64,000 nucleotides of DNA from Promethearchaeota archaeon (GTDB lineage: Archaea > Asgardarchaeota > Lokiarchaeia > Sigyniarchaeales > SOKP01): NCBI GenBank assembly GCA_048941385.1, contig JBHLNR010000002.1, positions 1,506 to 65,505 of the forward strand, in the 5' to 3' direction. Shown piece by piece: positions 58,304 to 64,000 of the stretch; the stretch's first letter is position 1; each line of letters begins with the position of its first letter. The translations under genes and the position numbers were made by a program. Below the pieces are notes generated by a model. That model saw only the letters and a list, made by a program, of their open reading frames with translations, ran no database searches and was not told the DNA's origin.

Positions 58304-58927
58304 ATGAGTCCAATTATCACGCATGAGGACGAGCTTATTCTCGCCAAGTCTGAGAAAGAATTGGCTTCTCAGCTGAAAAAACTGTCTAGAGCACAAAGTT
58401 CCTTAATTAATTCCCAAATAAAGTATGCAGAAGATATTTCAAAAGCAAATGTTACAAGAGAAATGTTAAATCGAACTTTTAGAGACGTTCTAAAACAAAT
58501 GCAAACACTTGCCCGAGAACATAGATCTAACATCAAGGATGAAGAAGTGAAGTTATATCAAGAAATTATTAGGGAAAATGATGACTATATTAAAGGTAAT
58601 AACACTTATTTAAACGCAGTTAAAGATTTAGCAGTGCAAAAAGAATATTTAGTTGCGAAAAAAGATGAATTTGTAGATGCGTTATCTGATTTAGCAAGTA
58701 AACGATCTGTGGTAATTAAAAAAGCCTTAGATGTTGAAAAAGCAAAAAATAAATTAATTGATGGCGATAAATTAAATATTCTTGACCAAGAATTGAATGA
58801 TGTCCAAAGAGATTTCGATAGAGCTCGAGATATATTTCTTAAGAAAATCCATCAATTTAAAGAGGTTAGAGACGAAATAAATGCCTTATGGCTTAAGTTA
58901 AAAGAAACTATTAAGGAATTAAGCTAA
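58304..58927 (+). CDS. All-alpha coiled-coil protein, function unknown
   Basis: 207 aa with a heptad-like K/E/L-rich sequence throughout. No enzymatic motif recognised. Confidence 0.5.
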   Translation: MSPIITHEDELILAKSEKELASQLKKLSRAQSSLINSQIKYAEDISKANVTREMLNRTFRDVLKQMQTLAREHRSNIKDEEVKLYQEIIRENDDYIKGNNTYLNAVKDLAVQKEYLVAKKDEFVDALSDLASKRSVVIKKALDVEKAKNKLIDGDKLNILDQELNDVQRDFDRARDIFLKKIHQFKEVRDEINALWLKLKETIKELS

Positions 58928-59057: not shown

Positions 59058-59528
59058 ATGTGTGCAGAAGAATTCGCTTCGTTTATGGATAGTACAAGAA
59101 AAGCACCGATGGAAGAAAAACTAAATGCGTTTGGTGAAATTGTTGAAAAAATAATGCAAATTGTTTTAAAAATACCCGATCTAGTAGACCAAAGCTTGCA
59201 AGGTATTAATTCAAAGGTTTCCAATTTGCAAAATCAAATTAATGCTGTAAGTGGTGATATTAGAGCGTTAAAATCAGGTTCTGGAATAACATCAGCAGCC
59301 TCTGCACCTTCAGCAGCTACATCTGCACCGGGAGGTCCGCCTGGAGGACCACCTAGAAGTGTTCCACCTCCCCCTGGTGCTCCGCCTGGAGGACCACCTG
59401 GAGGACCACCTGGAGGACCACCTGGAGGATCTGGCCCTGCTAGACCCGCAAGTCCTGTATCTCTTAGAGGTGCAATAATGGGTGAGCTTAAACAACTGTT
59501 CGCCAAGCGGAAGGAACAATCTGGTTAA
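59058..59528 (+). CDS. Coiled-coil / polyproline / C-terminal amphipathic (WH2-like) helix protein
   Basis: 156 aa. An N-terminal helical region is followed by APGGPPGGPPRSVPPPPGAPPGGPPGGPPGGPPGG and then SLRGAIMGELKQLFAKRKEQSG at the C-terminus. Confidence 0.6.
   Translation: MCAEEFASFMDSTRKAPMEEKLNAFGEIVEKIMQIVLKIPDLVDQSLQGINSKVSNLQNQINAVSGDIRALKSGSGITSAASAPSAATSAPGGPPGGPPRSVPPPPGAPPGGPPGGPPGGPPGGSGPARPASPVSLRGAIMGELKQLFAKRKEQSG
59329..59432 (+). repeat. GC-rich tandem 12-nt coding repeat (CCTGGAGGACCA, encoding PGGP)
   Basis: About 3.5 perfect tandem units lie at 59385-59432, with a related copy at 59337-59354. This is the only strongly GC-rich patch in this part of the window, and all six frames are locally open. 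Confidence 0.8.
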
Positions 59529-59678: not shown

Positions 59679-60269
59679 TCAAAATTCTAGAAAACCTGGA
59701 TCATCAAAGATATCTTCTATTTTTCTTTCTTTCTTTATTTTTGTATCGCTTTCAGCGAATAATGATTCTTCATCAGTTTTTACTCCCCTTTCAAGTTCAT
59801 CCGTTTCAAGTCTCAAAAGTGCGTCTTTCTCAAGTTTTTTATAATGTTCACTTCTCATTTTCCACTCATTTACCTCATCCAGGTTGACATCTTCTTCTTC
59901 TAGTAGTACTGCAGCTTTTGTTTTACAAAGATCTGATAAAATTGAGTAAGATAACGCAAGTTCACCCCATTCATTCTCTTCTTTTAATTTTTGAATTCGC
60001 TTCTCTAAACGTTGGAGCTCTTGATCGGCGTAATATATATCTATAAAATCTCCAAAAGCATCAACTGGTTCTGAGATAGAATTTACTAATACTTCCTTTG
60101 TCAAACCGCAGTTTCCACATTTTACTGTTGCAAAAGCACCTTTCTTCTTAATATCTGTGACTTTTACAGATTTTTCACCACACTCAGGGCAGGTAAAAAT
60201 TTTAGGTACTCTTTTAACTCTTTTTGGAGTAACTTGTTTTCTTTTCCGACGTCCCATATATAATATCAC
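59679..60269 (-). CDS. elf1: Transcription elongation factor Elf1 homologue with a ~110-aa acidic coiled-coil C-terminal extension
   Basis: Basic N-terminus MGRRKRK..PKRVKRVPKIFTCPECGEKSV...VKCGNCGL...EPVDAFGDFIDIYY matches the Elf1 zinc-ribbon core (CPxC...CxxCG...PIDVYSDWID) as I recall it. Confidence 0.7.
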   Translation of the reverse strand: MILYMGRRKRKQVTPKRVKRVPKIFTCPECGEKSVKVTDIKKKGAFATVKCGNCGLTKEVLVNSISEPVDAFGDFIDIYYADQELQRLEKRIQKLKEENEWGELALSYSILSDLCKTKAAVLLEEEDVNLDEVNEWKMRSEHYKKLEKDALLRLETDELERGVKTDEESLFAESDTKIKKERKIEDIFDDPGFLEF

Positions 60270-60385
60270 TAATAGATTTGAAATTATTAATAAGAATAAA
60301 AGCTAAATTTCTAAATTATTAAATAGAAGCAAGAACTAAAAATTTTTGCTTTTCTATTAACTGGATTTAGAAAAATTTTTTAGGA

Positions 60386-61561
60386 ATGGTTAATTACTTC
60401 AAATACTCTTTTTCACTAAAATGTTTTCAGAGTTTAAAAATAAGTGAGTGGATTTTAGGTATGGAGCATAAAGCCTTAACAATGGAAGATGACGCAAAAT
60501 TAATAGATACCATCATGGACGACATTGATATGAGATATATAGTGCTTTTCCTATACGTAATTAGAAATGATTTACTTAAGGATTTAGCTGATACTGAACT
60601 CATAGAATCTTACAACCGTATTTTATTATTAGACGAGATTTATAAAAGTAATATTGTCAAATTCTGGGAGGAAGAATTTATTGAAATTTATATTGACTTA
60701 GGATTGATTAAGAATATTCGCAGTATGAGAGAATTTAAACAAAAAGAGGATGACTTTATAGTAAAAATAGGAGAAGAAACAATAACAATTGAACACGACA
60801 CAATCTCTGTTCCGGATGATACCTTGTTCTTGATAATAAATAAGAAGTTTAAATTTTTAACGAGAAGAAATTTTAATCTAGCACTCACAAGATTAAAGGG
60901 GGTAAGATGTGAAAAGAGTAACGTTGTACACTCATTAATATACGAAATTGGAGAACATGACTATACATTAGCAAATGATTTATATTATATTTTAGATCAG
61001 TTTGGAAATATCTATCAAGTAATTAAAATAGAGATAACTATTGAAGGATTTTATCAGAGATTTAAGGAAATTGAAGAGAAGGTCAATGAATTCATAAATA
61101 TATTCGACCCGATTTTTAATACAAAACCCGCGTTAAAGAAAATTAATAATGCAATTGAAGAAAATAAAGATATTATTAACTATTTAAAAGATGAGAATGT
61201 TGAATTGTCAGATAAGTTCAATTTCGATAACATAAATAAACAAGAGCCCATTTATACTGATTGGCTTTCTAAATTAGACTATTTACTAAAAACTAGGCAT
61301 CAATTAAATGAAATAGAAAAAAAAATCCTTGAATTAAAAAACTATTATTCAGGGAAGGATAAAAAATTCAAATATCTTGAATTCATTGAAAAGGTTACCT
61401 ATAATGAAGAAGATATACTAAATAATATTCAAAAAATACTAGTTGATCTTAGAAAAGAAGTAATGAGTATTAACGATCAAATGACAGAATTAACTAAGAA
61501 AGATATAAAATTATTAAATTTGGATTTTGAAAGATTCATAATCACTAACAGCGAAGATTAA
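60386..61561 (+). CDS. Hypothetical protein (first gene of an uncharacterised operon)
   Basis: 391-aa ORF with a coiled-coil-like C-terminal third. No motif recognised. The true start may be an internal Met (MEHKALT). Confidence 0.5.
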   Translation: MVNYFKYSFSLKCFQSLKISEWILGMEHKALTMEDDAKLIDTIMDDIDMRYIVLFLYVIRNDLLKDLADTELIESYNRILLLDEIYKSNIVKFWEEEFIEIYIDLGLIKNIRSMREFKQKEDDFIVKIGEETITIEHDTISVPDDTLFLIINKKFKFLTRRNFNLALTRLKGVRCEKSNVVHSLIYEIGEHDYTLANDLYYILDQFGNIYQVIKIEITIEGFYQRFKEIEEKVNEFINIFDPIFNTKPALKKINNAIEENKDIINYLKDENVELSDKFNFDNINKQEPIYTDWLSKLDYLLKTRHQLNEIEKKILELKNYYSGKDKKFKYLEFIEKVTYNEEDILNNIQKILVDLRKEVMSINDQMTELTKKDIKLLNLDFERFIITNSED

Positions 61562-61563
61562 CC

Positions 61564-62526
61564 TTGAAGTGTCCTTCATGTAATATAGAAATGGAATCAT
61601 TGGTTGCGGGAATTTTTCAATGCCCTCAATGTAGAAAGATAGTTAAAGAGAAGGGAAAAGAAAGTGCAGCCGAAAAATCAAAAATAGAGGAAGGTGAATT
61701 TCAAGACGGTGAGTATTATCATAAAAATGCCAGTTTAAATAAACAATATGAGGTTTGTGAAAAAGGCATTACAATTAGTAAAACAGAAAATCGGCTCTTT
61801 GCAGCTTTAATTTGCCATAGTGGTTATCTGAAAGAAGAAAAATACGTAAGGTTGTCCTGGTGGAAAAATTTGCAACATGCCGGTATGTTAAAAGTCTACG
61901 ATAAAGAGGTTCTTAACAATACTATTATTGCTTTAGAGAAAATCGATGAAACTTTTGATGAAATTTGGAATTGGAGTGGAAATTATGGAAAAAAAGAAAC
62001 AAAATCAAAGGAAGATTTAGAAAAAGAAAAAATGCTAGAAATTATCAAATATAGGATTATCGAAAATAAAACCTGCCCAAAATGTGGGAAGAAGATGGAC
62101 AAAATGAAGTCGCATTATGAGTGTCAACATTGTGGAGAAATAGTAATATTAGAAGGATATAATCAACCAATCTTCAATATCCCATCAAACGAACTTGATC
62201 TAGGATTTCATGGAAATTTCCCTATTAACTTCTACTTCCCCGTAAGTGGGATAACAGTAAAATGGCTGATGGGAGAATGGAAAGCTTTAGTAGTAATTTA
62301 CTCAAAAGATAATCCCAACAGAAAATGGCTAAGATTTTACTGGTGGGTACGAGATCTTAGCAATATTTTAAGGTATGGACAAAGAGAAATGGGGGAAGGT
62401 ACTCAAATGGGGTGGAAAACCCAAAAAGGTGTATCCTCTCCGAATATTTATGACAAAAAGGTAATAAAACCCTTAATTAGTGCTCTGAAAAAAATTTCAA
62501 AAGAATTAAACTGGGAATTAAATTAA
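61564..62526 (+). CDS. Hypothetical protein with an internal duplication: two zinc-ribbon plus WW-containing-domain modules
   Basis: CPSC..CPQC and CPKC..CQHC ribbons are each followed by a K[YW][VL]R[LF]xWW ... YDK.V......AL.KI......NW domain. The TTG start is 3 nt after the upstream stop. Confidence 0.55.
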   Translation: MKCPSCNIEMESLVAGIFQCPQCRKIVKEKGKESAAEKSKIEEGEFQDGEYYHKNASLNKQYEVCEKGITISKTENRLFAALICHSGYLKEEKYVRLSWWKNLQHAGMLKVYDKEVLNNTIIALEKIDETFDEIWNWSGNYGKKETKSKEDLEKEKMLEIIKYRIIENKTCPKCGKKMDKMKSHYECQHCGEIVILEGYNQPIFNIPSNELDLGFHGNFPINFYFPVSGITVKWLMGEWKALVVIYSKDNPNRKWLRFYWWVRDLSNILRYGQREMGEGTQMGWKTQKGVSSPNIYDKKVIKPLISALKKISKELNWELN

Positions 62527-62547
62527 TATAAAAATCGAGAAAAAACA

Positions 62548-63687
62548 ATGGGAGAAATTCAAGATACTACCTGGAAAACAATACTGAGTGATTTTGAAAA
62601 TGGCCTCGAAAAAGCCATTGAAGAATTACAAAAACGAGATGTAGAAAACATTCCAGGTGCTAAAGAGGCACTCATTCAAAGACTTAATGATATGAAACTT
62701 CACTTTCCAAGAAATGATGGGGAAATCTTTATACAATCAATAAATGAGAAAATACAAAACGCATTTTTCCCTAATACTAAAAATTATTCTGAAGCATTTG
62801 AAAAAATTCTAAAATCAAGAACTCATGAGCAAGATTTCATAATAAATGAATTACTGAATGGATTTGTAACTTCCAAAGCTAAAGTTATCGCCTCCGACTC
62901 TCAAGGACCAATAATAGATAGAATGGTGGAAGCATTCAGTAAAAGAAATGATTTTCATATTGTTGATCATCAATTTTTCGCAATGTTTGGCAACCCAAAT
63001 AAACCTAGGCATTACATTCAAAAGCAACTTGAAGAATTAGTGAAAATGTTTGGGCTTATATCAAAAGAACTTGTAATTGAAAAAGATGTAAGAAGGAGCG
63101 AGGAAAAAGTATATACATTTTATACCTTCCCGCCTGAAATAATAAAAATTCTTGAAGAAAAATATCTGATTATAGATGAGGAATTAGGGTATGCTTATGT
63201 CTCAGAAGAATTTGATAGAAATGTGTTTATGTGCATGTTTTTAGCTAATGTTGCCATCTATCGTGATGATCTCGATAAAATAGGAGGATCATATACAATT
63301 AATGGTATTTCAGCTATTTTTGCTTTAATATTGTTATTAAGTTTCATGCCTAAATTATCTGTAGATGAGACAAATCCGATTTTAAATGACCCCACTTTTA
63401 AAGCAGAGAATATGAGTGTTATTCCGAAATCATGGATGATAAAACAAGTTTTAGAACCTTTATTTGAACCCCTCATTAAAATTGTGGCATATAGAGTAGG
63501 GGGAGGTTTATGGTTCTCAAAAATAGTGGATTCTGAAATCAATAAAAGAATCCATAATCAGATAAGATTTCTCCTTAAGGATGTAAATAAATGGATTTTA
63601 GGGAATTTATGTAGAGTAGAGATACCAATTTTTGTAGAAATCTCCAACATCTTCACTGAGGTTTTAGTAGGATATGATGAGGAGTGA
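62548..63687 (+). CDS. Hypothetical protein
   Basis: 379-aa ORF, 21 nt after the previous gene. It has one hydrophobic segment (ISAIFALILLLSF). No motif recognised. Confidence 0.5.
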   Translation: MGEIQDTTWKTILSDFENGLEKAIEELQKRDVENIPGAKEALIQRLNDMKLHFPRNDGEIFIQSINEKIQNAFFPNTKNYSEAFEKILKSRTHEQDFIINELLNGFVTSKAKVIASDSQGPIIDRMVEAFSKRNDFHIVDHQFFAMFGNPNKPRHYIQKQLEELVKMFGLISKELVIEKDVRRSEEKVYTFYTFPPEIIKILEEKYLIIDEELGYAYVSEEFDRNVFMCMFLANVAIYRDDLDKIGGSYTINGISAIFALILLLSFMPKLSVDETNPILNDPTFKAENMSVIPKSWMIKQVLEPLFEPLIKIVAYRVGGGLWFSKIVDSEINKRIHNQIRFLLKDVNKWILGNLCRVEIPIFVEISNIFTEVLVGYDEE

Positions 63688-63709
63688 AATAAGGAGGAGG
63701 TGAGTAAAC

Positions 63710-64000
63710 ATGAGCTATAAGAAAAAATCAACGAGGACGGTAAAACCTGGAAGAAAAAGAGAAAAATGGACTGATATTCTTCCCAGATATCTAACATTCA
63801 TAAGTCATATGCGCCCTATTCTAAGAGAAACTCGGAGAATAATTATTGATTTAGATCCTGATCTACTTCTTGACACCGAAATACTAGATAAAATCCGTCA
63901 GGAGGAAGAAAAAAGAAATATACGCAAGGTTAGAGCCCTCTCAGAATTCTCGGCTATGTATAGATCAAATGTCTATGAGATAATTAAAGATTTTATTATA
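63710..64000 (+). CDS. Hypothetical protein, 3' truncated by the window end
   Basis: ATG at 63710 is preceded by a strong SD-like AAGGAGGAGGTGA. The frame is open to nt 64000 (97 codons). The N-terminus is basic (MSYKKKSTRTVKPGRKREK). Confidence 0.45.
   Translation, partial: MSYKKKSTRTVKPGRKREKWTDILPRYLTFISHMRPILRETRRIIIDLDPDLLLDTEILDKIRQEEEKRNIRKVRALSEFSAMYRSNVYEIIKDFII

Follow-up and report, generated by a model that had tools for sequence, protein, structure and literature searches.

The window analysed here, a stretch of 64,000 nucleotides (nt) from a Promethearchaeota archaeon (assembly GCA_048941385.1, contig JBHLNR010000002.1; G000:C1:1506-65505 in our own numbering of genomes and contigs), ends within a group of four genes that we call g1 to g4. 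We find that these genes are the promoter-proximal half of an eight-gene operon, g1-g8, which is vertically inherited, occurs in single copy and is specific to a single order of Asgard archaea (Lokiarchaeia or Promethearchaeota, as the sources name it). For its products we infer, with a probability of about one half, that they assemble into one multi-subunit machine that binds and acts on nucleic acid, probably DNA. This reading draws on the gene structure, synteny and distribution of the operon, on the Pur-alpha-like fold of the g2 model, on the intact motifs of the g5 ATPase, and on variant operons in which part of the system stands next to a genuine SMC-like ATPase.

Gene structure and extension of the operon

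The four open reading frames (ORFs) lie on the + strand at 60386-61561 (391 amino acids (aa), ATG), 61564-62526 (320 aa, TTG), 62548-63687 (379 aa, ATG) and 63710-64000, the last reaching no stop before the window ends (97 aa). Because all four are kept as proteins in relatives, at 30-92 % identity, they are genuine genes, beyond what chance would produce. Read from the sequence, the junctions have the gaps of 2, 21 and 22 nt between co-directional ORFs that the original prediction, made from the sequence of this stretch, had given. At the first, g1 ends with GAT TAA at 61561, followed by CC and then by TTG at 61564, which agrees with the predicted start of g2 just after the g1 stop. The TAA of g2 at 62526 is separated by 21 nt from the ATG of g3, and the TGA of g3 at 63687 is followed by 22 nt containing AAGGAGGAGGTGA, the strong Shine-Dalgarno-like motif that had been noted before g4 (63691-63703, +), and by the ATG of g4 at 63710. 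For g1, the predicted 391 aa hold as the length of the ORF, but probably not as that of the protein. The first possible start of 17 out of 18 relatives lies no more than 4 codons from Met26 of the window ORF, at 60461 (only L035 is longer upstream), and since these relatives begin there we place the start of g1 at this position. The first 25 codons are thus probably not translated, which would make g1 a protein of ~366 aa at 60461-61561 (+), as judged from an alignment of 19 sequences with 55 % mean column identity.

That the operon runs off the end of the window was also part of the original prediction, and it does so by four further genes. Contig C1 ends at 66098, inside g4, of which it holds 294 codons, and a tblastn search of relatives' proteins against the own genome finds the C-terminal 183 codons of g4, followed by g5, g6, g7 and g8, on the reverse strand of contig C268 (4949 bp). 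The last 139 nt of C1 align end to end with the first 139 nt of reverse-complemented C268, with 3 mismatches, and it seems that variation between strains made the assembly break inside g4. The contigs of several relatives end at the operon locus too (L029, L031, L034-L036 and G292), which suggests strain-level variation here.

Conservation and distribution

Synteny was followed in 23 loci from 23 other genomes, whose ORFs were compared with the reference proteins. The genes g1-g4 occur in the same order and on the same strand in 19 of these; of the other four, L015, L031 and L035 are truncated where a contig or locus ends, and L017 is a divergent variant. BLAST recovers the complete g1-g8 set in 12 of the 23. 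In four loci of a second family, ORFs of similar size stand at the g6 and g7 positions and are mostly too divergent for BLAST (g7 was missed in 4/4, and g6 weakly matched in 2/4); operon genes of this family abut or overlap, for instance in L018. A gene for the transcription elongation factor Elf1 adjoins the operon in 18/23 loci and an Lsm-domain gene (PF14894, E 4.2e-11; PF01423, E 1.1e-4) follows g8 in 17/23, and as such the order Elf1, g1-g8, Lsm is conserved across two families of one Asgard order.

The distribution was also followed for individual proteins. Matches to g2 were found in 34 of 41 relatives (23/24 in family f1, 10/11 in the second family, f2, 0/1 in f3 and 0/4 in f4), and to g3 in 71 of 301 genomes of the phylum, every one of them f1 or f2. 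When distant members are included, the g3 profile, mostly with a single match per genome, reaches 134 of 400 phylum genomes (118/134 in f1, 13/14 in f2 and two weak matches in f32), and it has no match among these 400 outside f1, f2 and f32. The g1 profile matches 132 of the 154 genomes of the order (f1 121/134, f2 10/14, f3 0/1, f4 0/4). Presence of the two is coupled: among the 134 f1 genomes, 118 have both g1 and g3, 3 have g1 alone, none has g3 alone and 13 have neither. The identity of g3 falls with taxonomic distance, from 84-89 % in the closer species of the genus, through 64 % in the most divergent one sampled (G012) and 59-82 % in other genera of the family, to 52-55 % in the second family. 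Searched against 1.84 billion representative proteins, the g3 profile returns 39 clusters, and the g2 profile returns 336 proteins from a collection of 5.8 billion. Those g2 matches that carry a name are a 'hypothetical protein' of Lokiarchaeota/Promethearchaeota or other Asgard-labelled metagenome-assembled genomes, or bear misnomers that derive from the zinc ribbons, such as 'ribosomal protein L37AE'. The genes therefore do not occur independently and out of synteny (19/23 loci collinear, g1 and g3 coupled), and none of them maps by sequence to an unrelated known family. The extension, the synteny and the coupled presence support the proposal of a tightly coupled operon with four or more uncharacterised genes.

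At least some of the absences are assembly gaps, because the contig of G292 begins inside Elf1 and G110 has an Elf1 fragment only; a contig break at Elf1 is seen for G292 and perhaps G110 only. Five genomes lacking a g1/g3 match also lack g4. Two single-contig assemblies placed in the same genus, G006 and G023 (90 % and 81 % completeness), have no g1, g2, g3 or g4, and no Elf1 at E <=1e-10, the g2 search in G006 giving a match at zinc-ribbon level only; here either the region was lost or the assemblies are incomplete.

The predicted fold of g2

According to the original prediction none of the four genes carried an assignable motif, and while this still holds for g1, g3 and g4, g2 can now be given a Pur-alpha/PC4-like fold on the basis of a predicted model. 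[quoted passage not shown] Zinc ribbon 1 (Cys3, Cys6, Cys20, Cys23; 61570-61632, +) and zinc ribbon 2 (Cys171, Cys174, Cys187, Cys190; 62074-62133, +) are recognised by alignment and by zinc-ribbon Pfam matches below cut-off. Over 22 sequences C20, C23, C171, C174, C187 and C190 are invariant, and C3 and C6 are kept in >=90 %. The PUR-like repeats were delimited with DSSP and by alignment to 3k44_A. Repeat I, residues 63-130 (61750-61953, +), has four strands (63-73, 77-86, 93-101 and 104-111) and a helix (114-130), and includes a conserved Y-x-R-x-S-W-W-K strand; repeat II, residues 224-314 (62233-62505, +), has strands at 224-234, 238-247, 250-263 and 284-286, a helix at 298-314, and a W-L-R-F-Y-W-W-x-R strand that is likewise conserved. 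The N- and C-terminal halves are homologous (hhalign 97.9 %, E 5.4e-13, 120 columns). With two CxxC...CxxC arrangements and two related halves, the pair of zinc ribbons and the duplicated Trp-rich domain that had been read from this gene are both borne out.

Sequence searches return the zinc ribbons only. This is true of Pfam, where the best match is PF07191 (E 3.1e-5; its 24.3 bits fall short of the cut-off, 25), of the PDB sequence profile search and of PHROGs. It is the AlphaFold2 model (predicted local distance difference test score, pLDDT, 81.6; predicted template modelling score, pTM, 0.78) that reveals the fold. In a VIA-align comparison with 48,161 chains, the top match is Drosophila Pur-alpha 3k44_A (Z 12.4, root-mean-square deviation (rmsd) 4.8 A, 144/145 residues aligned, 7 % identity); the runner-up has a Z of 6.5, and later rows hold MRP1/2 (Z 6.5, rmsd 4.8 A, 123 aligned), Whirly PBF-2, PC4/Sub1, a T5 PC4 homologue and Borrelia Pur-alpha. 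Foldseek, proposed earlier as a check and run on the models of g2 and g3, likewise matches g2 to Pur-alpha of Drosophila and to human PURA with a probability of 1.00 (E from 2e-3 upwards, target TM score 0.61-0.66), and finds no PDB match for g3 at E <=1e-3. In topology and in its overall match to a solved PUR I-II domain, the predicted model of g2 thus has the features of a type I PC4-like/PUR protein. The Pfam family of Pur-alpha, PF04845, has no match to g2 at E <=1, and none in the six-frame translation of the own genome at E <=10. As modelled, g2 has a PUR-like fold but lies outside the PF04845 sequence family.

The closest known counterpart is therefore Pur-alpha I-II (PDB 3k44, 5fgp and 8cht; PF04845), with Whirly, MRP1/2 and PC4/Sub1 as remoter members of the fold class. 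Nearly the whole domain aligns, and the conserved strands of g2 are aromatic and basic. On the other hand, identity in the structural alignments is 6-8 %, in g2 a Cys4 zinc ribbon comes before each repeat, the repeats stand ~160 residues apart with a long helix-containing linker between them, a third (dimerising) PUR repeat is missing, and the gene is part of an eight-gene operon. In the text available of PMC7549692, the PUR/PC4-like family is described as binding single-stranded DNA and RNA, and as able to melt or destabilise duplexes. From its fold and its conserved Trp/Arg strands, g2 is probably a binder of single-stranded DNA or RNA as well.

The AAA+ ATPase and the back half of the operon

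The product of g5 is a classical AAA+ ATPase. It matches PF00004 with an E of 5.8e-26 and 91.9 bits, where 21.2 is the cut-off, and the own-genome copy has a Walker A motif (GPPGTGKT), a Walker B motif (ILFFDEID), sensor 1 (GATN) and the arginine fingers as the pair in WRRF. Its best PDB sequence matches are VAT and Cdc48/p97 (1.4e-31), and its best PADLOC match is IetA (E 9.1e-59, 197.7 bits, over the AAA core only), followed by TRIP13 (8.8e-19). With Cdc48/p97/VAT and IetA it shares an AAA domain in which Walker A and B, sensor 1 and the arginine pair are intact. Unlike these, g5 has a single AAA domain in ~369 aa, its N-terminal region is short and peculiar to it, and its pore loop 1 lacks the aromatic residue. 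A protease partner of the IetS type is missing, as are an MIT domain and the N domain of Cdc48.

Downstream of the ATPase, g6 is a charged, Lys/Glu-rich and weakly conserved linker, g7 is a long coiled-coil protein and g8 is a small protein of 169 aa, which is probably a winged-helix protein. By a crude heptad score, g7 consists of a globular end, heptad-rich arms and a second globular end, a layout that fits the SMC plan, and in none of 16 sequences can a Walker A or B motif be seen. A search of Pfam with 18 g8 and 16 g7 sequences yields coiled-coil noise and no consistent family. We also considered by eye whether g7 could have a degenerate SMC head, with LTTPEK as signature and IIFSN as Walker B; hhalign pairs these motifs at 0.3 %, which is not evidence. 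An SMC-like nature of g7 is putative. For g8 there is no Pfam ScpB or MAGE match, and the PDB sequence profile has 4 chance-level matches, mostly to designed proteins. Its profile does align weakly with a small ORF on C243 of the own genome, where this ORF comes after a live SMC-like gene (hhalign 46.8 %, E 2e-4, 99 columns; 1 of 36 comparisons). This ORF is part of a four-gene operon at C243:15851-21777 (-), encoding proteins of 417 aa, 1153 aa, 217 aa and 176 aa, of which the second is a live SMC-like ATPase with Walker A (SMC_N E 9.6e-18). The C243 operon may be the SMC5/6-related SMC-kleisin-kite set of this organism, and neither Pfam ScpB nor MAGE matches anywhere in the own genome. In the complete genome behind L016 (G038:C1, 10410-11150), the g8 homologue carries a C-terminal tail of ~12 KKKTT-type repeats; a short form of this tail occurs in L029, and in family f1 it is absent.

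Two relatives, G032 (L017) and G336 (L044), have a different back half. Here, divergent g1, g3, g4 and AAA+ genes are followed by a gene for an SMC-like ATPase of 1057-1071 aa, and g2 adjoins the cluster. The divergent copies match with hhalign values of 95.7 % (E 9e-9) for g1 and 97.4 % for g4, and identities of 24-25 % (E 1e-23) for g3 and 40-44 % for the AAA+ protein. The SMC-like protein matches AAA_23 (1.9e-17) and AAA_21 above cut-off, and SMC_N at 2.8e-7 (30.6 bits, below the cut-off of 40). Downstream of it follow a protein of 322-325 aa (MksE, E 6e-3) and one of 313 aa (Nse4_C, E 1.3e-3), both of these matches being below cut-off. By genomic context, these variants tie the front module and the AAA+ ATPase to an SMC-type module. 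A third arrangement exists in G334 (L045), where the place of g7 is taken by a 678-aa protein and one more zinc-ribbon protein is encoded.

How does the operon then compare with SMC-kleisin-kite complexes, such as Smc5/6 with Nse1-Nse3-Nse4, or the archaeal 'SMC5/6-related' operons described in the available text of 10.1101/2024.01.07.573240? Like these, it combines g7, a long coiled-coil protein whose ends are globular, with the charged linker g6 and the small protein g8, the last weakly resembling the small ORF after the live SMC-like gene on C243, and the two variants have a real SMC-like ATPase with weak MksE and Nse4_C matches in the place of g6-g8. In contrast, g7 has no Walker A/B motifs and no detectable SMC sequence relation, and the separate classical AAA+ ATPase and g1-g4, which are unknown from any SMC complex, are always present. 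Moreover, the own genome has a canonical SMC and the second live SMC-like operon besides, so that the g1-g8 system is additional. The text available of the same source distinguishes two kinds of archaeal SMC-kleisin-kite operon, none of them like g1-g8. A full-text literature search brought up no publication that deals with the operon or with a PUR-like protein from Asgard archaea, and as far as searched the eight-gene operon is undescribed in print.

The same proteins call to mind anti-virus or anti-plasmid defence of the SMC-like kind (Lamassu, Wadjet, PARIS, MADS), in which g2 would sense foreign DNA ends or single strands and the AAA+ ATPase would act as switch or effector. Besides the IetA and TRIP13 matches of g5, the SMC-like protein of the variants matches the PADLOC models of mad3 (2.1e-17), LmuB (2.6e-17), AriA and JetC, in all at E 1e-11 to 2e-17; the operon of G012 contains a defence island with LmuB-like, BrxP-like and DrmMII genes; and Smc5/6, too, restricts viral replication, according to the abstract of PMC9458440. 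We nevertheless consider a defence system unlikely. Defence systems are typically patchy and mobile, whereas this operon is single-copy, diverges in sequence along with taxonomy and is near-universal in two families (118/134 and 13/14 genomes), always at one fixed chromosomal site between the housekeeping genes Elf1 and Lsm. The eight proteins contain no nuclease, protease, TIR, Sir2 or other effector domain, and the main type of the operon does without an SMC-like ATPase altogether. Among the models of PADLOC-DB 2.0, g1-g4, g6 and g8 match none at E <=0.01 and g7 has one weak coiled-coil match to JetC (1.7e-3), while the IetA match of g5 covers just the generic AAA core; beyond this ATPase core, no membership in a known defence system was found.

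The front subunits g1, g3 and g4

Of the three remaining front subunits, g3 (62548-63687, +; 379 aa) is the best conserved of the operon. Its model (pLDDT 75.1, pTM 0.77, with low confidence at the conserved C-terminus) is a bundle of helices into which a winged helix is inserted, and the protein has an IPKSW motif that is invariant. The inserted winged-helix-like domain spans residues ~100-230 (62845-63237, +), with strands at 171-179, 186-193, 207-210 and 215-218 next to its helices. No Pfam or NCBIfam family matches g3 at cut-off, and a wide VIA-align search returns helical-bundle and generic winged-helix rows only, with a best Z of 4.9. These rows include Nse-, Smc5/6- and cohesin-type structures. 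The match to 7dg2_A (Nse1-Nse3-Nse4; Z 4.2, rmsd 4.3 A, 75 aligned) is no better than those to other winged helices, and 7qcd_E (Smc5/6; Z 3.9, 5.9 A, 100 aligned) and 6qpq_D (cohesin Scc1; Z 4.2, 3.7 A, 76 aligned) do not stand out either. On this model, the fold searches establish neither a new fold nor an Nse-like one.

The single hydrophobic helix seen earlier in g3 is indeed there, at residues 248-265 (63289-63342, +) in both alignment and model. Since specific residues of it are conserved and it is modelled inside the bundle, at pLDDT >80, a place in the core or at an interface is more likely for it than one across a membrane. Taken at face value, one such 18-residue helix, together with the neighbouring proline-rich/WH2-like genes, could point to a membrane- or cytoskeleton-associated system, and the genes for a proline-rich 156-aa protein and a coiled-coil protein upstream of Elf1 are syntenic in some relatives. 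Nonetheless this is very improbable: apart from the placement and conservation of the helix, the g1-g4 sequences show no signal peptide or further membrane span, no actin, tubulin, ESCRT or GTPase family match was obtained, and Elf1, on the opposite strand, separates the WH2-like genes from the operon. A specific ESCRT reading, with g2 as Vps36-like zinc fingers plus PH domain, g8 as Vps25-like and g5 as Vps4-like, was tried and discarded, as Snf7, EAP30, Vps25, Vps28 and MIT gave no matches, the fold of g2 is PUR-like and not PH, and the proteins described in the accessible part of the ESCRT survey PMC10936438 are different ones.

In g1, a globular N-terminal part is followed by a C-terminal half that a crude, uncalibrated score shows to be rich in heptads, consistent with the coiled coil that had been read from it. 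The protein matches no Pfam or NCBIfam family at curated cut-off, and its PDB sequence profile has 0 matches at E <=1. The first 97 codons of g4 lie in the window (63710-64000, +), and the gene runs on to the end of C1 and to C268; in relatives it encodes ~433 aa. The highly basic N-terminus predicted for g4 is confirmed as a tail that family f1 alone possesses. Again no Pfam or NCBIfam family is found at cut-off, and the PDB sequence profile has 0 matches at E <=5. Identical entries for g1 and for g4 (from residue 6) exist in the ESM Atlas, with no usable feature match. An all-versus-all hhalign comparison of the g1, g2, g3, g4, g6, g7 and g8 profiles gives no paralogy, its best pair being g3-g4 at 24 %.

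For the pair g3-g4 a complex was also predicted. Over three runs, which agree in at least 22 % of contacts with a partner pLDDT of >=77, the median ipSAE interface score is 0.42, against 0.00 for the best of 3 controls. In calibration, 116 of 157 solved complexes attained this mark, as did 2 of 215 mismatched pairs; scores at or below 0.60 were those of 18 of the 157 solved complexes and of both passing mismatches. A g3-g4 contact is thus weakly suggested. Of the multi-subunit system that the original prediction had put forward, the pairwise modelling weakly supports this one association.

A putative machine acting on nucleic acid

How might these proteins work together? In the machine that we favour, g2 would be the subunit that recognises the substrate, a PUR/PC4-like domain formed by one chain, each repeat of which bears a zinc ribbon, and it would bind single-stranded or locally melted nucleic acid through its Trp/Arg-rich beta-sheets. 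The lineage-specific proteins g1 (globular head and coiled coil), g3 (bundle and winged helix) and g4 (helical, with a basic tail) could serve as an adaptor module, and g5, as an intact classical AAA+ ATPase, would supply the energy. A scaffold may be formed by g6-g8, that is, by the charged linker, the long coiled-coil protein lacking Walker motifs and the small, probably winged-helix protein, and in the two variant relatives this scaffold would be replaced by the genuine SMC-like ATPase with its MksE-like and Nse4-like partners. The machine may have a role in chromosome maintenance.

Several observations must however be taken into account that weigh against this machine. The likeness of g2 to Pur-alpha is one of fold, without a PF04845 sequence match, and according to the available text of PMC7549692 the PC4-like fold may have arisen by convergence. 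Pore loop 1 of g5 reads SPLLGD and lacks the usual aromatic residue. For g6, neither Pfam nor hhalign gives a kleisin signal. The SMC character of g7 fares no better: 0/16 sequences match SMC or ABC families in Pfam (SMC_N, AAA_23 and AAA_21), the profile of its C-terminal domain finds nothing in the PDB at E <=10, hhalign against four SMC-like C-termini yields 0.3 %, and <20 % against two further SMC-like proteins, those encoded in the variant and the insert locus. In addition, the winged-helix matches of g3 are generic (Z 3.8-4.2), the individual ipSAE values of the g3-g4 runs are 0.42, 0.00 and 0.63, so that one of the three shows no interface at all, several of the 13 f1 genomes without g1 and g3 are 90-100 % complete, and insertions interrupt the operon at three different junctions in three genomes.

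A further point is that PUR domains bind RNA besides DNA, and as such the substrate may be RNA. The operon would then encode a machine for ribonucleoprotein (RNP) remodelling, or for mRNA storage or localisation, with g2 binding single-stranded RNA and the AAA+ ATPase remodelling RNPs. Binding of RNA as well as single-stranded DNA by PUR/PC4-like domains (PMC7549692, available text), the presence of the RNA-binding MRP1/2 among the structural matches of g2 (Z 6.5), and flanking genes that encode an Lsm-domain protein and Elf1 are all in line with this idea. Even so, RNA is quite an unlikely primary target, as the front module and AAA+ ATPase stand beside DNA-handling proteins in two genomes (the SMC-like ATPase and the MksE/Nse4-like proteins), no RNA helicase, nuclease, KH, RRM or S1 domains were found, and the Lsm and Elf1 neighbours are convergent or divergent, never co-directional.

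A bolder form of the DNA-directed machine, which we regard as doubtful yet a real possibility, is a chromosome machine of a new class restricted to Lokiarchaeia. In it, an SMC-derived coiled-coil scaffold that had lost its own ATPase would be driven by the AAA+ protein and aimed at single-stranded or melted DNA by g2 together with g1, g3 and g4, for which no relatives are known; the variants with a live SMC would represent the intermediate, and g2 would be an archaeal relative or forerunner of eukaryotic PUR proteins. The literature search brought up no earlier case of an SMC-like scaffold working with a separate AAA+ motor, and if the SMC link is true, this would be the first known one. Lokiarchaeia are among the few cultured Asgard archaea and serve as models for the archaeal ancestor of eukaryotes. 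A near-universal, lineage-specific operon whose products are annotated as 'hypothetical' or mis-named after zinc ribbons, with one subunit that has the fold of eukaryotic Pur-alpha in its model, and which is genomically interchangeable with an SMC-type module, therefore offers a testable entry point to Asgard chromosome or nucleic-acid biology.

Neighbouring genes and insertions

As the original prediction had it, the block adjoins Elf1, whose identity is clear from PF05129 (E 1.2e-18). This conserved, divergent neighbour encodes an Elf1-type zinc-ribbon transcription elongation factor at 59679-60257 (-). Its ORF is listed from a GTG (59679-60269, -) four codons before the Met of the MGRRKRK N-terminus conserved in relatives, and 60257 is probably the true start. 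Between Elf1 and g1 lies a divergent, AT-rich intergenic region (60270-60460, no strand assigned; read from the sequence), in which a TTTAAAAATA element ~23 nt upstream of the ATG at 60461 is a possible candidate for the TATA box of a leaderless or short-leader transcript. Sequencing runs matching all or part of 60270-64000 comprise 11 DNA-type runs from 5 studies, 4 of them with at least half of the words, and no RNA run is listed among the runs that match this region.

Upstream of Elf1, a 156-aa protein with a proline-rich (GGPP)n stretch is encoded at 59058-59528, and it also adjoins Elf1 in L014, L016 and L019, at 40-64 % identity. The 207-aa coiled-coil protein encoded at 58304-58927 is likewise found beside Elf1 in L019.

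Because the operon tolerates insertions at three junctions, coupling of all genes in a single transcript is not essential. In L020 (G012:C7, 8391-15142), an insert of ~8 kb lies between g5 and g6, inside the operon. It encodes an LmuB-like SMC ATPase (5.1e-7), a protein resembling BrxP/PAPS reductase (1.9e-46) and a cytosine methyltransferase (DrmMII 8.8e-95), and includes two small ORFs that are paralogous to each other. A second Elf1-like gene comes after these, and the insert looks like a defence island in an operon junction. We had considered the 644-aa SMC-like ORF that follows g5 in this genome as a part of the system; it belongs to the inserted island. In L023 (G069:C4, 2153-10985), ~8.8 kb with ORFs of 440, 130, 114, 1006 and 805 aa on mixed strands lies between g3 and g4, and the flanks are intact. 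Finally, G024 carries g1 (C25:79246-80340) and a broken 80-residue fragment of g2; the intact g2 (85343) lies ~5 kb downstream of these, and the opposite strand in between holds a 928-aa ORF.

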